From the IMG/VR virus record IMGVR_UViG_3300045988_166882: a DNA stretch of 64,000 nucleotides. The stretch is one strand, 5' to 3'. A program made the position numbers and the translations under genes. The notes beneath the pieces were generated by a model. The model saw only the letters and a list, made by a program, of their open reading frames with translations, ran no database searches and was not told where the DNA came from. The stretch is from a virus. Shown here in pieces: positions 5,486 to 49,078 of this stretch (the stretch's first letter is position 1; the number at the start of each line of letters is the position of its first letter).

Positions 5486-6887
5486 ACTATCGTCAAGCCT
5501 CATCACCGAGTTGCTTTCGGCGGCCATGCGTAAGCGCTCGGTGTTTGATATACTGAAACAATATTTGCGCTTTTCGTACCTTCAAGTCGAAGCCGAGAAG
5601 AAGGTTTGGAAACTGATGACCGAACGCCATTCGAAGACCGGACGCGTCCCGACGGTTGGTCAGTTGCAGCAGGCGTTCCTCGACGACGAAGGGGTTTTGG
5701 AGTTGATCGAGAACATACGCGACGTTGACGTGACGGATGAAGATGTACCGTCGCTCATAACGTCACTGGAGGCGTACATCCGCCAAATGAAGTTCTTGGA
5801 CGCCAACGACCGCATCGCCGACGCCTACAACTTAGGCGACAAGGAAAAGGCGTATAATATCCTAATCACTTCGGCTGAAGAAATCTCCCACTTCACTATC
5901 CAGAACGCCAAGTACGACCGCGTGTTCAGCGACTTCAACCGTCGTCAGTTGGAACGCCGTTCTAACGACTGGAATTATCGCTTCCGTATCCCGACGTGTA
6001 TCGACGAACTGGACTATCGGCTGGGTGGTGCAAACGGCGGCCCCGAAACAGGCGAAGCATGGCTGTGGATGGGTATTTCCGGCGCAGGTAAGTCGCAGGC
6101 GCTGGTTCACTTGGGTATCGCCGCCTCACGGCAGGGCTATCGCGTGGTTCACTTCCAGTTGGAGGGTACGCGCGAACAGGCCATGGCCCGCTACGACTCA
6201 GCGTGGCTTGGCGGTATCTATCAGGACGTGAAGGTAGGTAACATATCAGACAACAAACTGAAGATGGCGCAGCGCGTTGTAGCCAAACTCGGCAAGACCG
6301 ATATCATCGTCGTGGCGGTGGAAAGTTTCGGCGGTATGACCGTTACCCAGATGCGTCAAGAGTTGCAGGACATTGAACGCGCCTACGGTAAGGTAGACAT
6401 GATCCTTTGGGACTACCTCGAATTGGCCGAACTTGGCGACGGTCATAGCTATTCGATGAACGAGGAACGCTTCCGCCAGATGAAACTGGCCCAGCAGGCC
6501 AAGATGATGGCCATGGAGTTCAACGCCGTGGTTCATGTCGCTACGCAGGCTAACGGCATACCGCCGGAGTTACAAAACGACCCTGACTTTGTGATCACGC
6601 GCTACAACCTTTCCGAGGCTAAAGGCAAGGTGAACCCGATGGACGGTTTTGTGACGATGAATTTCACGTCCGACGAGCGCAAGGAAGAAATCATGCGGTT
6701 GTACCTCGATAAGGCCCGTGAACACAAGGCTGGCGATATCATCCGTATTTGTAACAACATGACCTATTCGCGTTTTTATGACCGTAAGCGCACGTTGGAA
6801 ATGCCGTGGGAGGATATCATTGAAGAGCAACACGCCGTGAAGTCGAAGCGCGGGCGGCGTAACACCTCGATGGACGATGACGAATAA
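5472..6887 (+). CDS. DnaB-like replicative helicase
   Basis: Walker A GISGAGKSQ, Walker B-like ILWDYLEL and a RecA-fold C-terminal domain pattern. First ATG at 5472 (the track start at 5451 is TTG). Confidence 0.75.
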   Translation: MLKDRLSSSLITELLSAAMRKRSVFDILKQYLRFSYLQVEAEKKVWKLMTERHSKTGRVPTVGQLQQAFLDDEGVLELIENIRDVDVTDEDVPSLITSLEAYIRQMKFLDANDRIADAYNLGDKEKAYNILITSAEEISHFTIQNAKYDRVFSDFNRRQLERRSNDWNYRFRIPTCIDELDYRLGGANGGPETGEAWLWMGISGAGKSQALVHLGIAASRQGYRVVHFQLEGTREQAMARYDSAWLGGIYQDVKVGNISDNKLKMAQRVVAKLGKTDIIVVAVESFGGMTVTQMRQELQDIERAYGKVDMILWDYLELAELGDGHSYSMNEERFRQMKLAQQAKMMAMEFNAVVHVATQANGIPPELQNDPDFVITRYNLSEAKGKVNPMDGFVTMNFTSDERKEEIMRLYLDKAREHKAGDIIRICNNMTYSRFYDRKRTLEMPWEDIIEEQHAVKSKRGRRNTSMDDDE

Positions 6888-6932
6888 TCTTTACTGAAGA
6901 ATGAACAATTATAACCGTATAAAACTGGTAAC

Positions 6933-7688
6933 ATGTACGGTATAATTTACAAAACTACGAACCTCGTCAACGGCAAGATTTACATCGGTCAACACGTTTG
7001 TGAATCTGACGAATTCGACGGGTATTTAGGCAGCGGGAGTGAAATATTAAAGGCTATTGATGAATTTGGTAAAGAAAATTTTAAGCGCGAAACGCTTAAG
7101 ATTTGTAACAATCAAATTCAGTTGAATGGCTGGGAATGTTACTTTATTTTGAAATTTAATGCCACTGACGAAAGTTGCGGATATAACTTGTTGAAAAGTT
7201 GTAGATTCAAACACGGTGCGCCGAGTAAACATCCTATTGTCAGGGCAAAGATATCTGCTTCAAGGATGGGAAAATTAAATCCAATATATAAACACGTTTT
7301 CACTGAAGAGGAACGCCAACGCGCTCGAGAACGGCGGCTTGGCGTTAAGATGAGTGAAGAATCTCGCCGAAAACTATCTGAAGCGAGGAAAGGTATGAAA
7401 TTTACTGAACAACATCGCCTTAATATACGGAAAGCGACTTTGGGAGATAAGAATCCTAATTTTGGAAAGCGAGGCGCGGAAACGGCTTTTTACGGACATC
7501 ACCACAGTGAAGAATTCAAAAAACGTCATTCAAAGAGAATGAGTGGTGAAGGAAATCCATCGTTTGGTAAATTTTGGATAACTAACGGCGTCGATGACGT
7601 TCTCATAAAACGCGGTTCGGATATTCCAGATGGATGGCGTAAAGGTAGGAGCAAGAATAACCGTATTTATGTCAAGAAGAGTAGGTAA
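6933..7688 (+). CDS. GIY-YIG homing endonuclease (copy 1), free-standing between helicase and primase
   Basis: GIIYKTTNLVNGKIYIGQH (GIY...YIG) plus repeated NUMOD3-like GxxNPxxG(K) motifs. A+T-rich compared with its flanks. Confidence 0.85.
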   Translation: MYGIIYKTTNLVNGKIYIGQHVCESDEFDGYLGSGSEILKAIDEFGKENFKRETLKICNNQIQLNGWECYFILKFNATDESCGYNLLKSCRFKHGAPSKHPIVRAKISASRMGKLNPIYKHVFTEEERQRARERRLGVKMSEESRRKLSEARKGMKFTEQHRLNIRKATLGDKNPNFGKRGAETAFYGHHHSEEFKKRHSKRMSGEGNPSFGKFWITNGVDDVLIKRGSDIPDGWRKGRSKNNRIYVKKSR

Positions 7689-9837: not shown

Positions 9838-10872
9838 ATGGCAATTAAAATTTCGAAAGTAAACGCCGAGCGTCTGAAGAAACTCGGTATTTCCGCCAAA
9901 ACCGAAGAAGAGGCAAAGAAGATCCTGCTCGACCGTCTCGAGAAGGCTGGAATCCCCGGCATGGACGAGGAGACCATCGACAACCTGATCGACATCGTCG
10001 GTTCGTTCGCCGAACTCGAAGGCGAAGCCGAGGAGGAAGCCGCTCCGGCTGATCCTACGCCCGCTGAAGCGCAGGCTGACGAACTGGCTGAGGAGGCCGC
10101 CGAAGAGGAGGCTGAAGCCGCCGCTGAGGAAGACCCCGAACCGGAGGCTGAACCTGAAGAGGAGCCTACCGAGGAGGAAGCCGCTCCGGCTCCCAAGCCC
10201 AAGAAGGCCGCGCCGAAGAAGGCCGCTCCGGCCAAGAAGGCTGAAAAGGCCGCCGAGGACAAACCCGCCAAGGAGTCCAAGAAAAAGCCGTCCAAGCGTA
10301 ACGAGAAGGGCACGCGTCTGAAGCCCCAGACCAACCCCGACGATCTCGAAATGCTCCGCAAGGCGCTGTCCAAGTTCTTCCCTGAGAAGGAGTTCCAGTA
10401 CGTAACGGTGTCGCAGGGTATCTCGATCAAGTTCGGCGGCGCAAACTCGCACCCCGTGGCTATCATGTTCGAGAACGTGTACGCCAAGGAAGGCGAACTC
10501 GCTACGACCAACGTCGTCCTGAACACGTTCCGCAGTCAGGCATCGCAGGACAAACTGGCCGACGACGGCGTGGACTTTGTTCCTACGTGGAACAACCTGC
10601 CGTGGTTGAAGGGTATTTCGTGGAGCGACGCCATGGAGATCGTCAAGACCTACCTCCCCGACATCAAGTCCGCCGTATCGACCGCCGATACGCGCCTTGG
10701 CAAGAACCGCGAGAAGATGGAGGCCGATCTGAAGGCTACCGGCAAGAAGGCCGCTCCCGCTCCCAAGAAGGAAGCCCCCAAGGCCGCGCCTGCTGAGGAC
10801 CCCAAGGCTAAGGCCCGCGCCGCTCTGGCTAAAGCCGCTGCCGCGAAGAAGGCCAAGGCAGCCAAGAAATAA
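9838..10872 (+). CDS. charged low-complexity protein with acidic and histone-H1-like K/A/P tracts around a globular core
   Basis: 344 aa. E/A-rich block, KKAAPKKAAPAKKAEKAAEDKPAKESKKKP, a core at about residues 160-290, and a C-terminal AAAAKKAKAAKK. Has its own terminator. Confidence 0.7.
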   Translation: MAIKISKVNAERLKKLGISAKTEEEAKKILLDRLEKAGIPGMDEETIDNLIDIVGSFAELEGEAEEEAAPADPTPAEAQADELAEEAAEEEAEAAAEEDPEPEAEPEEEPTEEEAAPAPKPKKAAPKKAAPAKKAEKAAEDKPAKESKKKPSKRNEKGTRLKPQTNPDDLEMLRKALSKFFPEKEFQYVTVSQGISIKFGGANSHPVAIMFENVYAKEGELATTNVVLNTFRSQASQDKLADDGVDFVPTWNNLPWLKGISWSDAMEIVKTYLPDIKSAVSTADTRLGKNREKMEADLKATGKKAAPAPKKEAPKAAPAEDPKAKARAALAKAAAAKKAKAAKK

Positions 10873-10976: not shown

Positions 10977-12194
10977 ATGAAGCAAGAAACCATTTCTCAG
11001 GCCGAAAAGGGCGTCAGCCGTTTCGACTTTAATATTAAACGCCGGGTTGCGTTTACGGACCGCCGAGGGTCGTTTGCGGAGGTGTACCCGTTCATCAACC
11101 AGATGATGATGGACCTCCCGTTACGCGATTCACGCGCTGGTAAGGTACGCGAACTGCTCGACGTCAAGACCATCATCAACAACCCGTACCGGCGGTGCGT
11201 CGGCGGGTACGGCCGCAACATCAATATCTTCTTCTTGCTGGCTGAGGCCATGTGGATTGCTACGGGCCGCAAGGACTTGGAGTTCCTGAAGATTTTCAAC
11301 AGCCGGATGAGCGACTTCTCGGACGACGGCGTAACGTTCCATGCTCCCTACGGTTGGCGGTTGCGTCACTGGGGTATTCCGTCTGAAGGTATGTCGCAGG
11401 ACCCCGGTCTGGATCAGGTCAAGGAAGCCGTCCGGTTGCTGGCCGCCGATCCTGAAACGCGGCAGGTGGTGATGTCGATTTGGAACCCCAAGTTTGACCT
11501 CGGCGTGAAGTCGAAGGACTTGCCGTGTAACGATATGGTGATGCTGAAACTGCGCGGTGGCAAACTCGTCACCACCGTCCAGAACCGCTCGAACGACCTT
11601 CACTGGGGGTTGCCCACGAACATCTTCCAGTTCTCGTTCCTGACGGAGGTAATGGCCCTTTGTTTGGGCGTGGAGTTAGGCGTCCAGACCCATAACTCAC
11701 AGTCGCTTCACGTCTACGAATGGAACAAAACGGCTCAGCAGATGAGCGAACTCTTCGTGTCTCACGCTACGCGCCGCAGTTTGTATTACGAAGGCGCAGT
11801 ATCGTACATGATGGACTTTAATTTTGAGTCCGAAGTGCCGGTAAACCGCCTTTGTGAAATAACGGCTTTCATGGAGGAAATGATCGGCCGCTTGTTGGTT
11901 CGTAACGTCGACGGCGGTGATCCTGACGATGAAGCCGGGTACGAGCAGTACGTGAGCGAGAAATCGACCTACTTTTGGGCCGTTTACCAGATGCTGAAAC
12001 TGTACGTGTTCTACAAGCGTAACCGCGGGGCCTGCTTGCCTGAGGACTTGGACCAGTTGTTGAATAATTGCAGCGAGATGCTGACGTTTATCAACAACGC
12101 TTGCGAAGTTGATAAGAACTGGGACTACATGATGCTGGCGCGCAACTTCTTTGCGGCAAGGTTATCTAACGCAGAACCGTGCAAAATCCTGTAA
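10977..12194 (+). CDS. ThyA-family pyrimidine C5-transferase (thymidylate synthase or dUMP hydroxymethylase), extended form
   Basis: Aligns by eye with E. coli ThyA: AEAMWIATG, HAPYGWRLRHW, DPETRQVVMSIWNP, LPCNDM (catalytic Cys), NRSNDLHWGLPTNIFQFS, SLHVY. 405 aa against about 264. Confidence 0.75.
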   Translation: MKQETISQAEKGVSRFDFNIKRRVAFTDRRGSFAEVYPFINQMMMDLPLRDSRAGKVRELLDVKTIINNPYRRCVGGYGRNINIFFLLAEAMWIATGRKDLEFLKIFNSRMSDFSDDGVTFHAPYGWRLRHWGIPSEGMSQDPGLDQVKEAVRLLAADPETRQVVMSIWNPKFDLGVKSKDLPCNDMVMLKLRGGKLVTTVQNRSNDLHWGLPTNIFQFSFLTEVMALCLGVELGVQTHNSQSLHVYEWNKTAQQMSELFVSHATRRSLYYEGAVSYMMDFNFESEVPVNRLCEITAFMEEMIGRLLVRNVDGGDPDDEAGYEQYVSEKSTYFWAVYQMLKLYVFYKRNRGACLPEDLDQLLNNCSEMLTFINNACEVDKNWDYMMLARNFFAARLSNAEPCKIL

Positions 12195-12195
12195 T

Positions 12196-13899
12196 ATGAC
12201 CGAATCACTACGTCGCTGGGCAGAGGATAACTATTTGGCTATCGAAGAGAAGCGCGACGACGAACTGAATATAATCGCTATCGAGGGTGTGGGGGACTTC
12301 TTGTACCTCCACCCCGACGATAAGGGTAAGATCATCGACGAACGGTTCTCGTTCGCGGTGACGGCCGACGAATTCGACGCGCTGTACGACGGCGTGGTGA
12401 AATACATCCTGTTCGAGTTTGGCGGCAAGTTCTACTACTCGAACATCAAGAAGGATCACCTACGGCTGGACAAGACCGTGGTATTCCGCCCGGAGTTCCG
12501 CGACTTCAAGTACCTCGGCACCAGTACGGCCGAAGAGTTGGTTCCGTTCGTACACTTGGGGGTTCACAGCGAGTACGAGTTCCTGAACGGTTCGTCTAAC
12601 TGCGACGAGTGGGCCGCTAAAGCCAAGTTCAACTGTATGACGGCGCTCGGCATATGTGACCGCAATACGCTGGCTGGAACGCTCGCCTTTCAGACCGCCT
12701 GTTTAGGTAAGGGGCTGAAGCCTATAATCGGCGAGACCGTCACGGTGGCGTGTAACTACGACCCCGCGGTGGACGTTCAGGAAACGTTCGCCCTGAAACT
12801 ATATGCCGCTAACGCCGCTGGGTGGCGTAACCTGCTGCTGGTGAATAAGGCTATCAACGTCGATTATCAGGGGTTCATCCCTGCGGAGGAACTGTATAAG
12901 TTAGGCCGCGGGCTGGTATGTGTCATACCACCCGACAGCGAACTCAACTACTTCAAGGGCGACGTCGAACGGTGTAAACGGTTGTTGAAAGCCTATCACG
13001 CGGCCTTCGAAAGCGTCTATTACCAGATCGACACCGTGGAGTTCGCCTCCGAAAGCCTTTTTCGCGACCACTTGGAAAGCCTCGATACCTACGTGTGCCG
13101 CTGCCGTACCATAAAACTGTACCGTGATACGCCGCCGCTCGTCATCAACGACTCGTACTACCTCGACGCCGAAGAGGCTCCGTTGAAGTCGCTGTTGAAT
13201 AAGGTAGCAGGCGTGGTAAACGCCGAAAGTGCGACGCAGTACTTTAAAAACTCAAAAGAGACGATTTTAGCCTACGAAGAGTGGATGGACGGAGCCGCGC
13301 CCCTCTACGAAAAGATAATTGATGGCATGGCTAATTCCACGACGTTGACGGAGAGTATTGACTTTAAGATACCCACCGGTATACGTCACCTGCCGAAATA
13401 CGAGTTTGTTAAAACTACGGTCGAAGACGCCTTTTTCGAGAAACTGGAAGCGGGCGTACAGGAGCGGTTGGTGGGCAAGGTTGACAACCTCGATCAGTAC
13501 CTCAACGAGTTGGAAAAGGAATGCGCCATTATCGTCCCTAACGGCTTGTGTGACTACTTTATGATACTTTGGGACATCATGCATTGGTGCCGCGAGCAGG
13601 GTATCATGACCGGGTCGGGCCGTGGTTCGGTGTGTGGTTCGCTGATTGCGTACTGCCTGTACATAACGGACGTTGACCCGTTGAAATACAACCTCATGTT
13701 TGAGCGATTTTTGAACCAATCCCGCGTTACCGTTCCTAAGTATTGGGATTTGGAAATAGAGGGATATGGTAAATTTAGATTACCTGAAAATGTCAAGATT
13801 CCTCTTCGAAACGGTAAAGAAATAGACATAGACTGTGATTTATCAAATATAGACCTGGACATAGATATTGATAAATTACGGACTTTATGCAAGGTATAA
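12196..13899 (+). CDS. dnaE: DNA polymerase III alpha (DnaE) N-terminal fragment
   Basis: PHP motif HLGVHSEYEFLNGSS, then GSGRGSVCGSLIAYCLYITDVDPLKYNLMFERFLNQSRV, then a 56-aa A+T-encoded foreign tail. ATG at 12196, 2 nt after the upstream stop. Confidence 0.85.
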   Translation: MTESLRRWAEDNYLAIEEKRDDELNIIAIEGVGDFLYLHPDDKGKIIDERFSFAVTADEFDALYDGVVKYILFEFGGKFYYSNIKKDHLRLDKTVVFRPEFRDFKYLGTSTAEELVPFVHLGVHSEYEFLNGSSNCDEWAAKAKFNCMTALGICDRNTLAGTLAFQTACLGKGLKPIIGETVTVACNYDPAVDVQETFALKLYAANAAGWRNLLLVNKAINVDYQGFIPAEELYKLGRGLVCVIPPDSELNYFKGDVERCKRLLKAYHAAFESVYYQIDTVEFASESLFRDHLESLDTYVCRCRTIKLYRDTPPLVINDSYYLDAEEAPLKSLLNKVAGVVNAESATQYFKNSKETILAYEEWMDGAAPLYEKIIDGMANSTTLTESIDFKIPTGIRHLPKYEFVKTTVEDAFFEKLEAGVQERLVGKVDNLDQYLNELEKECAIIVPNGLCDYFMILWDIMHWCREQGIMTGSGRGSVCGSLIAYCLYITDVDPLKYNLMFERFLNQSRVTVPKYWDLEIEGYGKFRLPENVKIPLRNGKEIDIDCDLSNIDLDIDIDKLRTLCKV

Positions 13900-14677
13900 T
13901 TTACAAAACTACGAACCTCGTTAACGGTAAGATTTACATCGGCCAACACCACTGCAAAACAGACGAGTTTGATGGGTATTTGGGTAGCGGCGTATCCTTG
14001 ACGAATGCTGTTAGGTATTACGGCCCTGAGAATTTCAAACGTGAAACGCTCCGCGTGTGTGATACCCAGCTACAACTCGACGCTTGGGAGATGCTTTACA
14101 TCAAGAAGCTACGTTCTACTGAAAAGGGTATAGGATATAACATCCTACCGGGTACGGCTAACCAGTTTGGAAGCGGTTCGCCGATGTTGATTCCAGAGGT
14201 CGCTGTTAAGGTTTCAAGGTCGCTTAAAAAGACGTTCAAGAATCGTCCAGAGTTAATGAAGCGAATTCACCAAAAACGCCAAATTACTTTGGACAATACT
14301 GACTACAAGGAAAGAATTTCGAAGTCCTTGAAAGGCAGATATGTAGGCGAAAAGAATCCAAACTACGGCAACCGATGGACAGCCGAACAAAAAGCGAACT
14401 TGTCGGCTAAAATGAGAGGTCGTTATAATGGTGAAAATAACCCTAACTGGAATAACCGTTGGCCCGAGGAACGGCGCAGGGATTTTGGTAAGAAAATACG
14501 CGATAGATACGAGCACGGGTACACGAATCCCATGCAAGGCAAAGTTAGGATAACTAACGGCGAAATAAACACTACTATCCCAAAGGGCGCTCCGCTCCCT
14601 GATGGATTTTGGTATGGCATGAAACCAAGAAAGAAATGAAAATTCTAAAGATAGAAAAGGTTGAAATTGCCCGTCAG
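13729..14677 (+). mobile_element. GIY-YIG homing-endonuclease cassette interrupting dnaE
   Basis: A+T-rich insert lying exactly between ...ERFLNQSRV and DSMPDVDCDF... of DnaE. It contains HEG copy 2. Confidence 0.8.
13887..14639 (+). CDS. GIY-YIG homing endonuclease (copy 2)
   Basis: MQGIIYKTTNLVNGKIYIGQH plus NUMOD3-like repeats. Nucleotides 13893-13949 match 6939-6995 at 54 of 57 positions. Confidence 0.85.
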   Translation: MQGIIYKTTNLVNGKIYIGQHHCKTDEFDGYLGSGVSLTNAVRYYGPENFKRETLRVCDTQLQLDAWEMLYIKKLRSTEKGIGYNILPGTANQFGSGSPMLIPEVAVKVSRSLKKTFKNRPELMKRIHQKRQITLDNTDYKERISKSLKGRYVGEKNPNYGNRWTAEQKANLSAKMRGRYNGENNPNWNNRWPEERRRDFGKKIRDRYEHGYTNPMQGKVRITNGEINTTIPKGAPLPDGFWYGMKPRKK

Positions 14678-16684
14678 GACAGCATGCCGGACGTGGATTG
14701 CGACTTCCCGGTGGCGTTCCGTGATACGGTCAAGGAATACATGGCTCGCCGTTACGGCGTCAATCACGTATGCTCCGTTGGTACGTACACCCGCATGAAA
14801 CTCAAGACATGTTTGAAGGATTTCGGCAAGGTCATGGGCGTACCGTTCGCGGTGATGAATAAACTCACCAAGGATATCGACGACCAAATCGAGTACACAT
14901 GGGGCGACTTGTTTAACTACGCAGCTACGTCGCGTGAATTGTTCCGTTTTGTGCAGGATCATCCCGAGTTGGTCCATATGACGAAATACGCCCTTACGCA
15001 GTGCAAAACGTCGTCAATTCACCCCTCAGCGGTTATTATCGTACCGCAGGAGGACGAGGATGGAAACCCGATCGATTTGTTCGGGTGGATGCCTATGAAG
15101 AAGATGGGCGACGTGCTTGTATCAGAGTGGGAGGGAAAGTATGTTGACAAGTCCGGCTTCCTGAAGGAAGATATTCTGGGGCTTAACCAGCTGGATAAGT
15201 TCTCATCTATCATCAAACTTATCGCCAAGAACCGCCGGGAGCAAATCGACGTCAACACCATTCCGTTCAATGACGAAGAGGTGTACCGCTATTTCCAGCG
15301 TGGGTGGTGCGAGGACGTGTTCCAGTTTGGTGCTATGGGGCTGATGAACTACTGCCGCGAGGCTAAACCTCAAAGCCTGGACGACCTAATCGCTATGACG
15401 GCGCTGTTCCGTCCCGGCCCTATGGATGTGAAGGCGCACGAAACGTTCGTTGATATCAAGAACGGTACCAGGAAGCCTAAGTTCGACCCCGGTATGGAGG
15501 AAATCACGCGCGACACCTATTCGCTTTATACCTATCAGGAGCAGATAATGAAAGCGATGGTTGTCGGAGGATTAACCCCCGTTGAGTCAGATGAATGTCG
15601 TACTTACATCAAGAAGAAAAACCACGAAGCGCTGGCCCAGTTTAAGGGAAAGTTCGTAAATGGATATTCGGCGTTGATAGAATCACGAGGCGTTGAATCT
15701 AAACGCGCCGCGGCCCAGGCTTCTGAGGTTTGGGACAAGATGCTGGCATTTGCTTCGTACGGCTTCAATAAGTCGCACGCCGTGGCCTATACCATGATGT
15801 CGTACTGGTCGCAGTGGTTTAAGGTGAACTACCCGTTGGAGTTTTGGACGACGTCACTTCAGTACGCTTCTAAAGAGGCTGATATTCCGTATCGGCTTGT
15901 CGAAATGAAGAAGACGGGTGTCGATATTGAGGTGCGTCCACCGGATATCAATTTCTCGGGCGAAACCTTCACTTGTGACCCTACCACGAACCGTATCTTC
16001 TTCTCGCTGGGGAAAGTTAAGGGCGTTGGTGAACGCGCGCTTTCGCTACTGAAAGCCATGAAGGAGGAGCACGGCGAAGTGTTCTCGTTTGAGGACTTCA
16101 TAACCTCCGCGCCAAAGGGAGTGAACCGTACTGTGGTATTGCGGTTGATTATGGCTGGAGCGTTCGACTTGGTGGAGGATATACGCAACCCGCGCCAGCG
16201 CTTGGACATCGTCAAGCAGTATCTCGACCGCCGCAGCGAACCGCTACCCGAAGAATTCACTTCGCCCGATGCCCATACCAACGCTTGGTGGGTCTTCAAA
16301 CAGCGTGAATTAACCGGGTACGGAGAAGTAGACTACGAGCGTATGATGAACGAATATGGGCTCGGAAAACGAATGGTCCGGCTGTACGTTACTGCTGCTG
16401 AATTTGAACGCAAGCGCGAAGGTGACGAAGTATGTATCGTGGGCCGCGTGAACAACGTATTCGAACGCCAAACCAAGCGCGGCGAGGCATACGGCGTTCT
16501 TCAAGTTGAGGTGAACGACCTTATCATTCAGGTTACGTTGTGGTCCGACTTCTGGCTTCATCAGCCGGAAAACGAGAGTACGTTGCTGAACCGAATAGTT
16601 GCCGTTTGCGGGCGTGTAAACTATTTTGCTGGTAAGAAGACCATCCAGTCTTCACAGTCTACAAGGTTAGAGATACTACAATAG
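14636..16684 (+). CDS. dnaE: DNA polymerase III alpha (DnaE) C-terminal fragment
   Basis: SMPDVDCDF, FLKEDILGLNQL, GFNKSHAVAYTMMSY and a C-terminal OB-fold-like region. The ATG at 14636 overlaps the HEG stop (ATGA). Confidence 0.85.
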   Translation: MKILKIEKVEIARQDSMPDVDCDFPVAFRDTVKEYMARRYGVNHVCSVGTYTRMKLKTCLKDFGKVMGVPFAVMNKLTKDIDDQIEYTWGDLFNYAATSRELFRFVQDHPELVHMTKYALTQCKTSSIHPSAVIIVPQEDEDGNPIDLFGWMPMKKMGDVLVSEWEGKYVDKSGFLKEDILGLNQLDKFSSIIKLIAKNRREQIDVNTIPFNDEEVYRYFQRGWCEDVFQFGAMGLMNYCREAKPQSLDDLIAMTALFRPGPMDVKAHETFVDIKNGTRKPKFDPGMEEITRDTYSLYTYQEQIMKAMVVGGLTPVESDECRTYIKKKNHEALAQFKGKFVNGYSALIESRGVESKRAAAQASEVWDKMLAFASYGFNKSHAVAYTMMSYWSQWFKVNYPLEFWTTSLQYASKEADIPYRLVEMKKTGVDIEVRPPDINFSGETFTCDPTTNRIFFSLGKVKGVGERALSLLKAMKEEHGEVFSFEDFITSAPKGVNRTVVLRLIMAGAFDLVEDIRNPRQRLDIVKQYLDRRSEPLPEEFTSPDAHTNAWWVFKQRELTGYGEVDYERMMNEYGLGKRMVRLYVTAAEFERKREGDEVCIVGRVNNVFERQTKRGEAYGVLQVEVNDLIIQVTLWSDFWLHQPENESTLLNRIVAVCGRVNYFAGKKTIQSSQSTRLEILQ

Positions 16685-42102: not shown

Positions 42103-42399
42103 ATGAAAGTGCAAGATTTTTACGGTGCGCTGGCCAAGAAGGCTGGTACCACCAAGGCTCAGGCGATTGAGTTCGTCCGCGCCCTCGAAGAGGTCCTCAC
42201 CGAAGAGGTCCGTGACAAGGGTGAAACTATTCCGCTGGGTAAGGTCGGCAAGTTTGTCCTGAAGGACGTTCCGGCTCGTACCATGCGTAACCCCTTCACC
42301 GGGCAGGACATCGAGACTCGTGCCTACCGGACCATCCAGTTCAAAACGGCGTATGCCATGAGGGCCGACGCTGAAACCGCCAAAAAAGGCAAAAAGTAA
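42103..42399 (+). CDS. HU/IHF-family DNA-binding protein
   Basis: GKFVLKDVPARTMRNPFTGQDIETRAYRTIQFKT matches the HU beta-arm signature (R-x-x-R-N-P-x-T-G). Confidence 0.8.
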   Translation: MKVQDFYGALAKKAGTTKAQAIEFVRALEEVLTEEVRDKGETIPLGKVGKFVLKDVPARTMRNPFTGQDIETRAYRTIQFKTAYAMRADAETAKKGKK

Positions 42400-42444: not shown

Positions 42445-42480
42445 TCCGTCAGGGAAGTGGTTTGCCCTGACGGATTTTTC
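42445..42480 (+). terminator. rho-independent terminator
   Basis: 10-bp perfect stem TCCGTCAGGG / CCCTGACGGA, followed by TTTTT. Confidence 0.8.
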
Positions 42481-43135
42481 GTTACTTTCGCGTCAACGTT
42501 ATACTACCTGAAACGAGGGAATGCTGACTTTCCATGCCAGTTAGTTTCGAGTTGCTATAAGCGAGTTTCTTTTCCAAAACAGGATCGGCCAACGCCGTGA
42601 AGGTTTGGTTGATCCAACTCTTAGCGTTCCCTCTACTTTAGCCAGAAGAGCGCTGGGGAGTCAAAGAGTGGCCACAATTTACTCCATACAGTATCTCGTT
42701 CCGACCTCCGGGTCGGCTGGCACCAATACGGCTGGCCCGAAGCCGATCTCGATGAAACCAGCGGTGCGCACGCTGAGGGGCTACGAAGGATAGTAGCTGG
42801 GGTGAAATTCCCCGGTGAAGCCGGACGAAGTCGACGCCGATAGACAATAAAGAGCCTACGCTCACTCGGCTAATCGTTCTACAGACCACGACCTTCGCGG
42901 TCCGGCGAGGCCCTCCGTGGGTTGTGCGAGTAGAACGAGGGTATATCTCCACGGCTGGGGGGATCGGAGTTAGGCCTCCGTAAGGTGTAAGCCCTGACGC
43001 CAGCCAACGGGCCGCAAGGTCAAACAAATTGTCTCCAAGGCAGCAACGCAGACTTCCTCCATAGCGAGCGCCGGAGCGGAGGAGACAGACTCTAACTGGG
43101 GGAAGAGTATAAGCGATTCGTCGCGCCCCCTACGC
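42481..43135 (+). ncRNA. candidate large structured non-coding RNA, part 5' of the tRNA
   Basis: No credible ORF. G+C-rich (42721-42780 is 39 of 60 G+C). Many short perfect hairpins, e.g. 42701-42716, 42797-42815 and 42965-42980, plus 43030-43036 pairing with 43081-43087. Confidence 0.45.
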
Positions 43136-43206
43136 TGATTCGTGGTGTAACGGTAACACACCAGATTTTGGTTCTGGCGTTGGAGGTTCGAATCCTTCCG
43201 GGTCAA
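43136..43206 (+). tRNA. tRNA-Gln (anticodon UUG)
   Basis: Full cloverleaf folded by hand: acceptor TGATTCG/CGGGTCA with U1-A72, D arm GTGT/ACAC, anticodon arm CCAGA-TTTTGGT-TCTGG, T arm GGAGG-TTCGAAT-CCTTC, discriminator A. CCA is not encoded. Confidence 0.85.
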
Positions 43207-43527
43207 CTCTAAGGGCTTTTCGCGAAGAGCCTACCGAAGATCGCTAACGCCGCTGGCTGCGCTTCGGGTCGTGATAACCGGAATCACGATGACGCCGCGG
43301 CAACCATAACCCCGAAGGTCAGGGGTTCAAAGAAATTTCGTTCGTCATCGTTGTGGCAGTTCGCCCGCCCGGCCGGCATGGGGAAGATCAATAGGAACGG
43401 CAACCGACGAGCGCGGGGCGCGAAATATCGCCCCGACCCTAAAAGTCTTAACAGACTTCCATCAATCAAAGGTTTAATTCACCCCGGACCGCCCCACAGT
43501 AGCGATACAGCGAGGCGGTTTTCTTTT
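43207..43527 (+). ncRNA. candidate structured non-coding RNA, part 3' of the tRNA, ending in a terminator-like hairpin
   Basis: Hairpins at 43214-43231, 43269-43289, 43308-43327, 43415-43434 and 43443-43458. Long-range pairing CGATGACG (43287-94) with CGTCATCG (43343-50). ACCGCC/GGCGGT followed by a T-run at 43488-43527. Confidence 0.4.
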
Positions 43528-43557
43528 ACAACTATAAGGATGGAAAAGACTAATTAA

Positions 43558-44436
43558 ATGAAGATAGGAATAATATACAAATTAACCATTTTAGCGAAGT
43601 ACAAGTTCTACGGACAACGCCCCTTTTATGTCGGTCAACACTGGGGAATGGAAGACTTTAACTCGTATTTTGGCGGAGGTACAATTTGGAACGATTTTCT
43701 GAATGTCGTCAAAAAGGATTATCCGCTTCACTGGAAAAAGTTTGTTCGGCGTGAAATTTTATATCAAGGCGCGTGTGATCAACGTGCTTTGGACTTTCTC
43801 GAACAGTATTACATAAAGCGCGAAATGGCGCATTATACCGAAGAGAAAGGCGGTTGCAACGTTTTACGTGGTACGGCGAATGCGTTTGGCGCTGGGAGTC
43901 CGATGAAGGACGAAAATTGCAAAAGAAAGCAGGCTGAATCGTTGAAAAAGTATTATGATGAATACGGACATCCGTGTTTAGGTAAAAGGGCAACTCCCGA
44001 ACTGCGTAAACGGTTGAGTGAAGCGCATCGAGGCAAGAAACTATCGCCAGAAACGGTTGAAAAGATACGTAAAGCCAACGCTGGAAAGAAACGAACGCCT
44101 GAATTTTGTGAGTTGATGCGTGAAATGTGGCGTAAACGGAAAGAAGCGGGTTACGTGCCAAAGAATAGAGGGCGAAAAGTCCCCAGGGAAATAGTTGAAA
44201 AACGAGCCGCAGGGGTACGTAAATATTATGCCGAACACGCTTCATCGTTTTTAGGTAAACACCACACCGAGGCTACAAGGTTAAAAATTAGTGAAGCGAA
44301 TAAAGGCAAGAAATTACCGCCTTTTTCAGCTGAAACGAAATTAAAGATGAGCCAATCAGCCAAAAAGGCGTGGGCAATTAGAAAACAACAAAATAATTAC
44401 AATGCGTCGTTCGAATTATCTTGTAATGGACACTGA
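43558..44436 (+). CDS. GIY-YIG homing endonuclease (copy 3, divergent)
   Basis: IGIIYKLT...FYVGQH and GGCNVLRGTANAFGAGSPM, with repeated basic helical modules (RKRLSEAHRGKKLSPET, RLKISEANKGKKLPPFS). A+T-rich. Confidence 0.75.
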   Translation: MKIGIIYKLTILAKYKFYGQRPFYVGQHWGMEDFNSYFGGGTIWNDFLNVVKKDYPLHWKKFVRREILYQGACDQRALDFLEQYYIKREMAHYTEEKGGCNVLRGTANAFGAGSPMKDENCKRKQAESLKKYYDEYGHPCLGKRATPELRKRLSEAHRGKKLSPETVEKIRKANAGKKRTPEFCELMREMWRKRKEAGYVPKNRGRKVPREIVEKRAAGVRKYYAEHASSFLGKHHTEATRLKISEANKGKKLPPFSAETKLKMSQSAKKAWAIRKQQNNYNASFELSCNGH

Positions 44437-45070
44437 AACCGGGGGCCTGGACCCCGCACAGAACCCCATAACGTCGTTTGCAGCCGTTGTGCTGGACTTT
44501 AACACCCTTAAAGAGGTAGACCGCTGGGAAACCTACGTAAAGCCGTACAACGATCTCCAAATAACGAAAGAATCCATCCAAAAGACGATGGTCAATATGG
44601 CCGAGGTGAACCGCGGTATGGACCTCAACGCCTTCATCGAAGCGTTCGGGCGGTTCTGTACCCAGAATTTCCCCGACGTGAAGGGTAAGGACCAACGGCG
44701 GTTGATAGGCGTTGGCCACAACGTGATGTTCGACGTGGGGATGCTGGAGGCAGCGTTCTACTACTCGGCCTACTCCAAAAAGCAGACTCTGTTCACCTAC
44801 ATCCAAGACCAGACGCTGGACACGATGTACCTCTCCAAAATGATGTACGGCCTCGCGGGCGACGAGAAGATGACGTTAGGCGCCACGTGTGAACGCGCCG
44901 GCATCCGCCTCACCGACGCTCACGGCGCGATGAACGACGTTGAAGCCACGGCCGAGTACTTCCGCTACTGTATCCAGCGTCTTCGTGCTACGGGCGACGT
45001 CTCGTCTTCTGCCGAGAAGAAGACTCGCCGCCGCGGGAACGAATTCTTCGAGTTCAAGTGCGCCAAGTAA
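44402..45070 (+). CDS. DnaQ-like 3'-5' proofreading exonuclease
   Basis: ExoI MDTETGGLD, ExoII GHNVMFDVGML, ExoIII HGAMNDVEATAE. The start (44402 or 44426) overlaps the end of the HEG. Confidence 0.8.
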   Translation: MRRSNYLVMDTETGGLDPAQNPITSFAAVVLDFNTLKEVDRWETYVKPYNDLQITKESIQKTMVNMAEVNRGMDLNAFIEAFGRFCTQNFPDVKGKDQRRLIGVGHNVMFDVGMLEAAFYYSAYSKKQTLFTYIQDQTLDTMYLSKMMYGLAGDEKMTLGATCERAGIRLTDAHGAMNDVEATAEYFRYCIQRLRATGDVSSSAEKKTRRRGNEFFEFKCAK

Positions 45071-46360: not shown

Positions 46361-49078
46361 ATGATGCCTCAAATTGCGATCCCGTCGTTGACGCACCGTT
46401 TGGCTTGTTTAGACCTCGTTGACGAGATAATCGAGGGTATGGACGAACGCGGCCTTAACGAGATGATGAGTGGCGATACACACGACGTTGACACGATATT
46501 TGATGCTTTGATGATGGACACGTACCGGATTATGTATACTGGCGACGTGTCGATTGATTTTAAGCCCCGCTATGAAGAGAACGTCTCGGCCGTGGTTGAA
46601 GACACCCTGCGGTGTGCCAATTTGACGTATTTCATCACCTCCGTCATCCCGGACTTCCAGCTGTCGTGGCACCACTTGGAGTGGGGTGAGTTAGTCCACA
46701 ACCACAAGAAATTGTGTATCAACGCAGCACGTGACCACGGGAAGTGTGAAGCCGTCGGAACCCCTGTCCGGATGTACGACGGAACTATCAAAAAGGTCGA
46801 AGACGTTGTGGTTGGCGACTTGTTGATGGGCGTCGACTCTAAGCCCCGCCGCGTGGTTGCTACGCGCCGTGGCCACGATTCGATGATGTACCGTATCGAC
46901 CAGTCGCGCGGTGATAGCTACACCGTCAACTCACGCCACATTTGTACGCTGATCGAGAAGGACCGCAACGGTTCCATCGCTACAGCGTCGAAGCGGATAG
47001 TGGATATTGATATTCCGACGCTTTTAAGCAAGACCCCGAACTGGGTGAAGGAACGTTACCGCGGTTTCAAGGTGGCAGTGCAGTACCCCACGCGGCCCGT
47101 GGGGTTGGAACCATATTTTCTTGGGTACTGGTTAGGCGACGGCAACTCCAACAACCAGAAGATCACCACCGCCGACCCTGAAGTGTGTGAGTACTTACAC
47201 TCTTACGCCGAGCGCTTGGGGCTTCACTATGGCCAAAATGGTATGGTAGTGACACTTGGAATTGACGTTCGTGGCCGCGGTAAGCGTAACCCGCTGGAAA
47301 GGATGCTCAAGGGTTACAACCTGCTCTACAATAAGCACATTCCGGAGCAGTACCTCGTCAACAGCGAAGAAGTTCGTCTTCAGGTGTTGGCTGGGTTGAT
47401 CGATTCCGACGGTAACTATTGGCAGGGCGGCTATCACTTCGGTAATACGAACTACCAGTTGGTGTGTGACGTGAAGAACTTGGCCGACAGCCTTGGCTTC
47501 TGTACCCGAATGGGTGGTGGAACGCGGTATTGTAAAGCGTTAGGCCGCGACTATTCGTCGTGGTGCGTGACTATTTCTGGTGAACTGGACCGCATCCCAG
47601 TAAAGATCGCTCGTAAAAAGGTCCAAACCGACTGGGCCGCCAAGACGTCACACAAGGACTGGGGCACTATCGACGGCGTACACCCTACGGTGGTATCGTC
47701 GTTGAAGATCACGCCCGCGGGTGAAGGTGACTACATATCTATCACCACCGACGGCGACCACCGCTTCGTGCTGGGTGACGGTACGGTTACGCACAACTCG
47801 TTCTATTTCTCCAACGCCTACGCCGCGTGGCAATTATACCGCTATAAGAAGCCGTCAACGACCCGTTACTCGAAGCGTCCCACGGTAGCGTCGTCGAATC
47901 GCGGCTTCTTGTTTTCGTTCTCACTCCAGCAGAGCGTTGACCTCTTGGAGATTCTGAAAGGAACCATCGAGGAAAACGAGATTTTGAAGGAACGCCTGCT
48001 ACCCCAGTCCACGGCCAACAACTGGTCGGCTACCAATATCGTGTGCCGTAACGGCGCGCGTTTGACGGGTAAGGGTTTTGGGTCTTCGGTGCGTGGTGCT
48101 CACCCCTACTGGATTATCGTCGATGACGGCCTGAAGGACAACGTCATCTATTCCAGCCTCCAGCGAAATAAGTCTACCGACTATTTCCATTCCGTAATTA
48201 TGAATATGCTCGTACCCGGCGGCCAGATCGTTGTCGTCGGTACGCCGTTCCACGCCGAGGACCTTTACGGCGACCTCAAGACCAAGAACGGTTGGTTCGT
48301 GATCGAGTACCCAGCCATCTTCCCCGACGGGCGAATCCTTTGGCCGCAGCGTTGGTCGTTTAAGGACCTGATGGACAAAAAGGAGACCCAAGGCTCGATC
48401 ATCTTCTCGCGTGAGAACCTTTGCCGCCCGATCACCAACGAATCGTCGATCTTCCCGATGGAAATCCTCACTCGGTCGTTGCTGCGTATGGAGAACTACA
48501 CGTTGGTGGATTCACGCGAAGAGTTCCCCGTTAAGTTCTCCAAGGTAGTCGTGGGCTGTGACTTCGCTATGTCGGCCAACGTCGGTGCTGACTACGCCGT
48601 ATTCAGCGTGTGGGGTATTGACGAACTGACCGACGAGCGTTGGCTGCTTCACCTGTGGCGTGAAAAGGGTGCCAAGTTCTTCGAACAGATGAACGTCCTG
48701 CGCCGTATCAACTCGCGTTTCCGGCCCGACCTGATCGTGATGGAGAACAACACCTTCCAGCAGATATTCGTCGAAACGGCCGACACTGAGGGTATGCCCG
48801 TGATTGGCCACACTACGGGAATTGATAAGTACGACCTGAAGACGGGGTGGCCTCACCTGTCGACGCTATTCGAGCGGGGCAAAATCCACATCCCGGTGGG
48901 TAACGTCTACTCTCAGCAGGTGAAAGACCTCATCTTCCAAGACCTCGGTTCAGTGGCCTTCACCGAAAAAGGCTTGGAAAGCGTGGGCAGCCACGACGAT
49001 ATTTCGTCGTCGTTCTGGTTGGCTGACTTGGCCGCTTCGCGTATGACTACGGGCTTTAAGTTTGATATGTTAGGTTAG
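46361..49078 (+). CDS. terL: terminase large subunit containing an intein
   Basis: Extein Walker A AARDHGK|S (interrupted by the intein), Walker B PYWIIVDDG, VVVGTPFH, and nuclease motif VVGCDFAMS...DYAVFSVWG. Confidence 0.85.
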   Translation: MMPQIAIPSLTHRLACLDLVDEIIEGMDERGLNEMMSGDTHDVDTIFDALMMDTYRIMYTGDVSIDFKPRYEENVSAVVEDTLRCANLTYFITSVIPDFQLSWHHLEWGELVHNHKKLCINAARDHGKCEAVGTPVRMYDGTIKKVEDVVVGDLLMGVDSKPRRVVATRRGHDSMMYRIDQSRGDSYTVNSRHICTLIEKDRNGSIATASKRIVDIDIPTLLSKTPNWVKERYRGFKVAVQYPTRPVGLEPYFLGYWLGDGNSNNQKITTADPEVCEYLHSYAERLGLHYGQNGMVVTLGIDVRGRGKRNPLERMLKGYNLLYNKHIPEQYLVNSEEVRLQVLAGLIDSDGNYWQGGYHFGNTNYQLVCDVKNLADSLGFCTRMGGGTRYCKALGRDYSSWCVTISGELDRIPVKIARKKVQTDWAAKTSHKDWGTIDGVHPTVVSSLKITPAGEGDYISITTDGDHRFVLGDGTVTHNSFYFSNAYAAWQLYRYKKPSTTRYSKRPTVASSNRGFLFSFSLQQSVDLLEILKGTIEENEILKERLLPQSTANNWSATNIVCRNGARLTGKGFGSSVRGAHPYWIIVDDGLKDNVIYSSLQRNKSTDYFHSVIMNMLVPGGQIVVVGTPFHAEDLYGDLKTKNGWFVIEYPAIFPDGRILWPQRWSFKDLMDKKETQGSIIFSRENLCRPITNESSIFPMEILTRSLLRMENYTLVDSREEFPVKFSKVVVGCDFAMSANVGADYAVFSVWGIDELTDERWLLHLWREKGAKFFEQMNVLRRINSRFRPDLIVMENNTFQQIFVETADTEGMPVIGHTTGIDKYDLKTGWPHLSTLFERGKIHIPVGNVYSQQVKDLIFQDLGSVAFTEKGLESVGSHDDISSSFWLADLAASRMTTGFKFDMLG
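46745..47797 (+). mobile_element. 351-aa intein with LAGLIDADG homing-endonuclease domain, inserted in the TerL P-loop
   Basis: Starts at Cys (CEAVGTPVRMYDG) and ends VTHN, with Ser at +1. Two LAGLIDADG motifs: YFLGYWLGDGNS and QVLAGLIDSDGNY. Confidence 0.85.

Follow-up and report, generated by a model that had tools for sequence, protein, structure and literature searches.

A tRNA-Gln gene within an apparently undescribed, clade-restricted structured RNA unit of human-gut phages

The stretch of DNA analysed here (the window) comprises 64,000 nucleotides of the IMG/VR virus record IMGVR_UViG_3300045988_166882. In this window, a gene of the HU family (42103-42399; Pfam Bac_DNA_binding, 4.9e-17) lies upstream of a region at 42481-43527, and the gene of a DEDDh (RNase T-family) exonuclease is located on the downstream side of that region (44402-45070). 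An initial annotation, made from the sequence alone, had pointed out 42481-43527 as a candidate large structured RNA, and in this it was right: the locus is non-coding, conserved, phage-borne and structured, it consists of a conserved core and of peripheral stems that vary by lineage, and a tRNA is embedded in it. Rfam 15 was scanned at the gathering threshold and at E≤10 with the window region and with four or five homologs, divergent ones included; the tRNA was the sole match above chance level that survived scrutiny. The tRNA-Gln(UUG) that the same annotation had recognized was found by both ARAGORN and Rfam at 43136-43207 on the + strand (RF00005, 61.2 bits at a gathering score of 29); no CCA is encoded. 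The locus is apparently a real, clade-restricted structured RNA unit that has not been described before, with a layout like that of the GOLLD RNAs but without membership in their family.

A search of IMG/VR with the HU protein yielded 22 loci in which the HU gene is followed by a homologous non-coding region (individual related loci are given below by L numbers). The order HU - RNA with tRNA-Gln - exonuclease is kept in these loci, and the tRNA-Gln(UUG) occupies the same relative position in 22 out of 22. A DNA pattern derived from the most conserved segment recovered exactly the same viral contigs and, in addition, 25 contigs from human-gut metagenomes, often 97-101 kb in length, which possess the same core, pseudoknot and 5' part of the tRNA. 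The locus is thereby known from 47 related contigs of human-gut phages of ~100 kb. Among 36 unique versions the size of the element, counted from where the HU terminator ends up to the 3' terminator, varies between 488 and 1042 nt; a minimal version, L019 6361-6857, comprises ~497 nt. One record, IMGVR_UViG_3300029572_000001 (199 kb), holds two copies of the whole locus (L001 and L005) about 99 kb apart, in which HU is 99% and 71% identical to that of the window; this record is apparently a chimera, with two related phage genomes joined head to tail, and does not represent one genome.

The pattern from the conserved segment had no match in 185,579 species-representative genomes. Further DNA patterns, two of them run against viral contigs and two against the same 185,579 genomes, returned the same clade or nothing, and nhmmer profiles of the core and of the 3' domain D3 indicated a single copy per genome and absence from distant relatives. 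We also compared 48 more distant phages with an exonuclease 45-52% identical to that of the window. In the 46 of them with enough upstream sequence, the gap between the nearest upstream open reading frame (ORF; ≥60 aa) and the exonuclease gene was at most ~320 nt, in all but two below 180 nt, and homology to the element was absent. Since homologs are confined to this clade and the distant relatives are without the element, it counts, as far as the sequences tell, as the innovation of a single narrow clade among the human-gut phages.

As initially proposed, 42481-43527 holds no credible ORF. The six longest ORFs are without a Pfam or PHROG match, and the indels that distinguish the homologs within the locus are not multiples of three and break the reading frames. 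When 294 upstream ORFs of the distant relatives were compared to the region by tblastn, nothing was found below E 0.03, and an origin as a pseudogene is rejected on this basis. The region had furthermore been described as G+C-rich. This holds in relation to the other spacers (0.556 versus a short-gap mean of 0.39) but not in relation to the genome average, which is equal (0.53); the segment 42721-42780 does contain 39 G+C among its 60 positions. All hairpins and arm pairs listed at that time are present. Four of these helices (42797-42815, 43214-31, 43269-89 and 43308-27) are found in segments of the window's sub-lineage only and are without comparative support, and the pair 43287-94/43343-50 competes with a helix that covariation does support.

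The unit is bounded by two terminator hairpins, both of which had been noticed before and are conserved with compensatory changes. At the 5' boundary, the intrinsic terminator of the HU gene (42445-42479, + strand) consists of the stem 42445-54/42465-74 with a 10-nt loop, followed by a run of five T (-18.4 kcal/mol). It is kept in all homologs, with a stem pair changing from U-A to C-G. At the 3' end, the intrinsic terminator of the RNA unit (43488-43527, + strand) pairs ACCGCC with GGCGGU ahead of a U-run, with compensatory replacements of G-C by A-U and of U-A by C-G. A simple terminator scan with loops of 3-8 nt missed both, probably because their loops are larger than this limit. In each terminator one related locus carries a flipped hairpin: the inner stem-loop of the HU terminator is exactly inverted in L012 (~6330-6350) compared to all other sequences (GGGAGGTGGTTTGCCC versus GGGCAAACCACCTCCC), and so is that of the 3' terminator in L020 (~6826-6856; CACCGCAGTGATGCAGAGG versus CTCTGCATCACTGCGGTGG).

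The RNA locus opens with the motif CAACGTTATAcTA, in which CAACGTTATA is invariant in all homologs and is followed by (c)TA. Here, at 42494-42506 on the + strand, lies the recurrent promoter-like motif CAACGTTATACTA with the -10-like TATACT, conserved at the start of the locus. Pattern matching with CA[AG]CGTTAT[AT] (consensus gCCAACGTTATAc) found eight sites on the + strand of the window (5271, 9746, 10941, 23761, 33931, 40448, 42494 and 45078) and none on the - strand; the sites examined fall at gene boundaries. In each of seven related loci examined, the motif occurs at three conserved positions, upstream of HU, at the start of the RNA locus and just past the stop codon of the exonuclease, two of which adjoin gene ends. 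The motif probably represents the promoter class of this phage, unlike the Bacteroides consensus TTTG/TAnnTTTG, and would place the transcription start near 42510-42515. It is a better candidate than the TTTG/TACTTTCG promoter suggested in the initial annotation, whose TTTG is lost or inverted in relatives (inverted in L012). A solitary CRISPR repeat or an RNA anti-CRISPR was also considered for the 5' leader (GTTAC...GAAAC) and rejected, as this stretch holds the recurrent promoter motif and the Rfam match in question (CRISPR-DR19, 20 bits, E 1.9) is at chance level.

The 5' domain D1 (42515-42633, + strand) is closed by a 13-bp helix (42515-27/42621-33) that is found in every lineage. At least four of its positions covary, and one pair appears as G-C, G-U and A-U. 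These pairs were counted with RNAduplex, because realignment of D1 with MAFFT misplaced the 3' strand owing to an insertion. On the opposite strand the G-U intermediates would be C-A mismatches and hence unpaired, which argues that the helix acts as RNA of the + strand. Folded alone, D1 reached minimum free energy (MFE) z values of -5.1, -3.4 and -4.5 in three lineages and of -1.6 and -0.7 in two others. The domain displays a conserved unpaired tract, UUUCUUUUCC, at 42566-75, while its hairpin at 42582-42615 is specific to the window's lineage.

Optional hairpins have been inserted or removed at fixed points across the lineages, and every such module has a closing helix of its own. Module M2 (42641-42721, + strand), closed by GCCAG/CUGGC and holding the hairpin 42701-42716, is present in 14 of the 36 unique homologs; its closing A-U is replaced by G-C in L022, and two inner pairs are substituted in both strands of the stem. 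The insertion M3 of ~220 nt (42729-42950, + strand) belongs, according to the alignments, to the window's own sub-lineage only. One of its sub-hairpins is exchanged for another in L001, and its internal helices are without comparative support. Module M4 (42953-43005, + strand), in which GGCUGG (42953-58) and CCAGCC (43000-05) pair around an inner helix of UUAGG (42970-74) with CCUGA (42993-97), occurs in all lineages save the L019 group and L009/L011, with one compensatory pair according to RNAalifold. Downstream of M4, most lineages possess a GNRA-type tetraloop hairpin (43010-43021, + strand), which reads GGCC-GCAA-GGUC in the window, GGCC-GAAA-GGUC in L009 and GGUC-GUUA-GACC in L022.

The most conserved part of the locus is a near-invariant core of 66 nt (43027-43092, + strand) with the arm pair UGUCUCC (43030-36)/GGAGACA (43081-87). 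Within a run of 60 alignment columns, 54 show no variation among 39 sequences. Identity of the core to that of the window amounts to 92-100% in the related loci, compared to 64-73% for HU DNA, 79-86% for the exonuclease and 85-93% for the tRNA.

The core leads into an H-type pseudoknot (43089-43130, + strand), the 3' end of which is located 3-6 nt upstream of the tRNA. Stem S1 is formed by ACUCU (43089-93) and AGAGU (43104-08), stem S2 by GGGGG (43098-102) and CCCCC (43126-30). In S1, the compensatory version ACCCU/AGGGU occurs in L050 and a U-G wobble in L059. S2 exists in five compensatory versions, with the variants GAGGG/CCCUC, AAGGGG/CCCCUU, GAGGGAU/AUCCCUC and AAGGGGC/GCCCCUU. Loop 3 combines an invariant AUAA with a variable hairpin, GCGA (43113-16)/UCGC (43121-24), for which L009 and L001 have different hairpins.

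Minimal HDV-like "theta" ribozymes have been reported beside tRNAs in gut phages and are inactivated by a C-to-U change (PMC10879173). Like the locus studied here, they occur in gut Caudoviricetes, adjoin a tRNA and are pseudoknotted; they lie at the 3' ends of tRNAs, whereas the pseudoknot described above lies on the 5' side. The Rfam model CPEB3 matched the pseudoknot both in the window (16.8 bits, E 0.27) and in L019 (20.6 bits, E 0.002-0.007), each time below its gathering score of 35, and this match stems from the P1-like GGGGG/CCCCC and a P3-like GCG/CGC. The strand AGAGU that would have to serve as P2 covaries with the upstream ACUCU (ACCCU/AGGGU in L050), which makes an H-type knot and not a nested double pseudoknot. 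The expected order P1-P2-P3-P1'-(P4)-P2' was not found, nor any conserved downstream partner before or within the tRNA. The position of the catalytic C (first position of J4/2) is occupied by U in the L019 alignment, and the alignment of the window gains a C only by recruiting the T-loop of the tRNA across a 57-nt insertion. On account of the topology, the missing catalytic C, the position 5' of the tRNA and the borrowed T-loop, we rejected this reading and do not regard the pseudoknot as an HDV-like ribozyme.

The tRNA itself served as a positive control, as its acceptor and anticodon stems covary among the homologs; the window region and two divergent homologs gave no second tRNA-like match, even with the limit relaxed to E≤10. 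The tRNA is followed by a variable segment (43208-43335, + strand) which, in the alignment, contains lineage-specific hairpins. This segment is missing from L001, L052, the L019 group and L022, and L004-type loci have a different branched hairpin with a U-run in its position. The 3' domain D3 (43339-43413, + strand) is closed by the 8-bp helix CGUUCGUC (43339-46)/GACGAGCG (43406-13), next to which a conserved hairpin is located at 43414-43435. D3 holds the conserved elements GCCGGC and CAAUAGGAAC. The GCCGGC is self-complementary, and GUCGGC, its counterpart in the L019 group, can still pair with itself through wobbles. In the 3' region of L009, which is otherwise different, the sub-motif CGCCCGGCCGGCA..GGGA..CAAUAGG persists. 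A small hairpin, AGUCU-UAAC-AGACU (43444-43457, + strand), is kept with a different sequence in the L019 group, where it reads CCUC-A(4-5)-GAGG. Over the full 3' block including the terminator, 99.7% of the cells are paired, compared to 36-59% when the partners are slid.

We think it on balance probable, judging from these comparisons, that the locus is a functional unit of structured RNA which surrounds a tRNA and belongs to a new family. Covariation, named in the initial annotation as a check, gave a divided answer: compensatory changes are seen in the closing helices of D1 and D3, in pseudoknot stem S2 and in the terminators, but the count for the 3' domain lies within shuffles and the core is invariant. 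A global long-range pair scan, noisy with ~5 lineages, placed only the tRNA acceptor and the D1 and D3 closing helices above noise. What the data reveal is a series of domains, each closed independently, and not a single globular RNA. The earlier description of the region as helix-dense is correct in so far as the helices exist; thermodynamically they are at chance level, and exceptional values are confined to the 5' domain (z -3.7 and -2.5 in 150-nt windows, -5.1 folded alone) and the terminators. As neither folding energy nor G+C content is distinctive, the case is built on comparative evidence.

A number of observations weigh against a functional RNA unit of this kind. The compensatory changes are drawn from only ~5 lineages. 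In the 3' block five pairs change on both sides, all of them via one lineage split, and the number of covarying pairs in the 3' domain does not exceed that of shuffles (181/500). The helices of the core never vary, which makes covariation uninformative for them; moreover, the folding energy of the core is ordinary (z ~0), and its conservation could equally be explained by a site acting at the DNA level. D3 is absent in L010 and so is dispensable there, which leaves the concept of one RNA machine a conjecture, and the long-range scan did not detect a helix between the 5' and the 3' part. In 150-nt windows the mean MFE z was -0.46 in the region and -0.36 in 156 control windows drawn at random from the rest of the 64-kb window (Mann-Whitney p=0.48), and the whole region folds alike on both strands (-381 and -380 kcal/mol). 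Sites complementary to the UUUCUUUUCC loop of D1 or to the core are not in excess within the window, where no partner or target was found. The locus has been established as non-coding, conserved and restricted to one clade, with defined limits of the unit and several covarying helices; the transcription start, the transcript ends, processing, stability and the binding of a partner are points that we infer.

In the mechanism we propose, transcription would proceed from the unit's own phage-type promoter (42494-42506) to the intrinsic terminator (43488-43527), over ~1.0 kb here and ~0.46-1.0 kb in the relatives. The transcript would be a precursor of tRNA-Gln(UUG) comprising D1, the variable hairpins, the core, the pseudoknot, the tRNA and D3. 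Excision of the tRNA-Gln by RNase P and a 3' endonuclease would release a stable 5' RNA, from D1 through the core and the pseudoknot, and a stable 3' RNA with D3 that ends in the terminator. The invariant core might be the functional site, recognized in a sequence-specific manner by a protein or RNA partner during infection, and the pseudoknot might cap and protect the 3' end of the 5' product or tune cleavage by RNase P.

Among the known RNA families, GOLLD, ROOL, group I and II introns, RNase P and tmRNA gave no match at the Rfam gathering threshold. With the limit at E≤10, the window region and two divergent homologs likewise gave none, apart from a chance-level hit to group-II-D1D4-1 (15 bits, E 8.7); tmRNA was not detected by ARAGORN either. 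The suggestion that the locus could belong to GOLLD or ROOL is therefore not borne out by the covariance models. GOLLD RNAs (Weinberg et al. 2009) have a conserved 3' region and a variable 5' region, with a tRNA sometimes placed in the linker (cryo-EM study, 10.1101/2024.12.08.627333). Like the locus, they are phage-encoded, 0.5-1 kb in length and composed of one conserved and one variable part, with a linker that can be occupied by a tRNA. This context, a phage or prophage with a tRNA between two halves, is reproduced by the tRNA-Gln between the domains in 22 of 22 loci, which is insufficient for membership. GOLLD differs in that its most conserved element is the 3' half, whereas here it lies directly 5' of the tRNA, and in that its Rfam model is unmatched by the locus, whose RNA is confined to a narrow clade of human-gut phages. 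ROOL RNAs resemble the locus in being borne by phages or prophages, often near tRNA genes, and in being large and containing pseudoknots; they lie beside tRNAs and not around one, and the locus has no Rfam match to ROOL. As regards assembly into homo-oligomeric nanocages, as in GOLLD and ROOL, the self-complementary GCCGGC of D3 is the sole lead in the locus.

Another point of comparison is the tRNA cluster of phage T4, in which small stable RNAs (species 1 and 2, ~140 nt or smaller) are co-transcribed with eight tRNAs and set free by tRNA processing, and which also includes the gene of the GIY-YIG endonuclease SegB. The stable non-tRNA RNAs predicted for the locus would likewise come from a tRNA transcription unit, and a GIY-YIG gene is found next to the tRNA region in both cases. 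The two are unrelated in sequence, and the locus has one tRNA amid 400-950 nt of structured RNA. A full-text literature search found no description of the locus.

The main rival to a functional RNA unit is a phage tRNA gene of the ordinary kind, albeit with a leader and a trailer of unusual length, whose flanks would work only in cis, as promoter, in processing by RNase P or at the 3' side, or in attenuation and termination, and would be functionless once cleaved. The tRNA is indeed the sole element of known function, the pseudoknot lies 3-6 nt from the RNase P site, and in L004-type loci a terminator-like hairpin with a U-run comes directly after the tRNA. The modules are also separable, as D3 is missing in L010 and not every lineage possesses M2, M3 or the post-tRNA segment. 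We nevertheless consider this explanation rather unlikely. In related and unrelated phages (L111, L100 and the 8-tRNA array of LoVEphage) the tRNA flanks measure 5-80 nt, so that a leader acting in cis needs no 200-650 nt. Conservation of the core, moreover, exceeds that of the tRNA which it is supposed to serve, and D1, 500 nt upstream of the tRNA, is yet closed, covarying and thermodynamically exceptional. If the locus were one large "ornate" RNA of the GOLLD/ROOL type that forms multimers, stays intact with the tRNA in a linker and assembles into a higher-order particle, this would account for the layout parallel to GOLLD, phage-borne with a conserved and a variable half and the tRNA between them (10.1101/2024.12.08.627333). 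The variation of peripheral stems around a fixed core would fit, too, as would the pseudoknot, the GNRA-tetraloop hairpin and the self-complementary GCCGGC of D3, which could mediate kissing. But no GOLLD or ROOL match was obtained from Rfam at E≤10 with three divergent versions, pairing between the 5' and 3' parts is unsupported, the minimal versions have ~490 nt including the tRNA, one lineage is without D3 and the folding energy is unexceptional, so that we regard this possibility as quite improbable.

Two further explanations were considered. Invariance of the core without a covariation signal or special RNA stability would fit a protein-binding site on the DNA, for example an origin of replication, a site for packaging or the target of the neighbouring homing endonuclease, with incidental RNA folds. 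Homing endonucleases favour conserved targets, and a mobile GIY-YIG endonuclease gene is inserted alongside in some lineages; in addition, the locus is flanked by the HU gene and by genes of replication type, and the terminase gene follows 2.8 kb downstream. We deem such a site very unlikely: the helices flanking the core covary with G-U intermediates that are workable only in RNA of the + strand, a promoter motif and a terminator on the same strand bracket the unit, the cumulative GC skew has no turning point here, and neither iterons nor repeats of the core elsewhere were found. The notion of a decayed tRNA array, of other pseudogene debris or of hidden small protein genes has for it that phage tRNA arrays of similar total length exist (~850 nt in LoVEphage) and that stop-free frames are many at 56% G+C. 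It is disfavoured by the current data to the point of being barely credible, as a second tRNA-like match is lacking at E≤10, conservation of 92-100% is not expected of debris, and hidden genes are contradicted by frame-breaking indels and by the lack of matches to protein families or neighbour proteins.

Returning to the functional RNA unit, its stronger version as a single GOLLD/ROOL-like particle ranges in our view from quite improbable to rather unlikely. We would put forward only tentatively, as a rather unlikely reading, an undescribed class of large modular phage RNA in which the tRNA is built into a scaffold of 0.5-1 kb (core, pseudoknot, stem-closed domains and a self-complementary loop). 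Such an RNA might work as an intact particle, possibly multimeric like GOLLD and ROOL, which presents or sequesters the tRNA, or else a factor of translation or defence, while a human-gut bacterium is being infected. Large tRNA-associated phage RNAs such as GOLLD and ROOL comprise few classes and are among the most striking RNAs of unknown function, and we know of no class of such RNAs tied to abundant human-gut phages. The locus provides a compact example, with a minimal form of ~490 nt, a tRNA that is always embedded and a 66-nt core that marks the probable functional centre, and natural deletion and insertion variants already reveal which modules are dispensable. Hence, the question of what tRNA-linked phage RNAs do becomes directly testable. 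The more modest reading, if true, would still mean that a phage tRNA is expressed in an unusual way, together with stable RNAs.

Between the terminator of the RNA unit and the exonuclease gene, a gene for a GIY-YIG/NUMOD3 homing endonuclease is inserted (43558-44436, + strand; Pfam NUMOD3 3.7e-10, PHROG homing endonuclease 2e-21). It is free-standing, lies outside the RNA and overlaps the start of the exonuclease gene by 35 nt. The gene occurs in approximately 6 of 23 related loci, at the same site each time (the window, L006, L010, L012, L013 and L021 only), a distribution characteristic of a free-standing homing endonuclease gene that is mobile, here next to an RNA gene of high conservation. 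Eight nucleotides upstream of its ATG (43558), GGAAAAGA (43542-43549) is perfectly complementary to the unpaired UCUUUUCC of D1 (42567-42574); this match is probably due to chance, because such 8-mers are not enriched on the + strand (8 versus 7). A small ORF of ~100 aa with the N-terminus MGNLLKALVVAFLIMS, which looks hydrophobic, is present in L010 (~6880-7270) and L013 (~7010-7370). In L013 it sits between the RNA locus and the endonuclease gene, and in L010 it replaces the entire 3' domain of the RNA.

The window belongs to an uncultured phage, encoding TerL, a portal protein, helicases, SbcC and a DnaE-type polymerase, and its predicted genes are on the + strand throughout. The sole indications of the host, 37% identity of TerL to that of Bacteroides phages and 84% identity of the tRNA to a Bacteroides phage tRNA, hint at Bacteroidota. 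The large terminase (46361-49078, 905 aa), whose gene begins 2.8 kb downstream of the RNA locus, contains Hint, Hom_end and LAGLIDADG domains at residues ~130-385, which suggests an intein with a homing endonuclease within TerL. The gene of the DnaE-type DNA polymerase III alpha subunit is divided into two ORFs, one (12151-13899) with the PHP domain and the N-terminal part of the NTPase domain, the other (14609-16684) with the remaining NTPase domain, the fingers and HhH. The ORF between these halves (13887-14639) has sub-threshold matches to GIY-YIG (SegE-like) and NUMOD3 and looks like a second homing endonuclease, inside the polymerase gene. The putative TerL intein together with the two GIY-YIG genes shows this phage to be rich in selfish elements. 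Finally, the ORF at 9838-10872, with a G+C content of ~0.62, is fully overlapped by an antisense ORF and has no Pfam match. The 10-mer CCGCTCCGGC is repeated internally at 10040, 10181 and 10223, and the product may be a repetitive protein.

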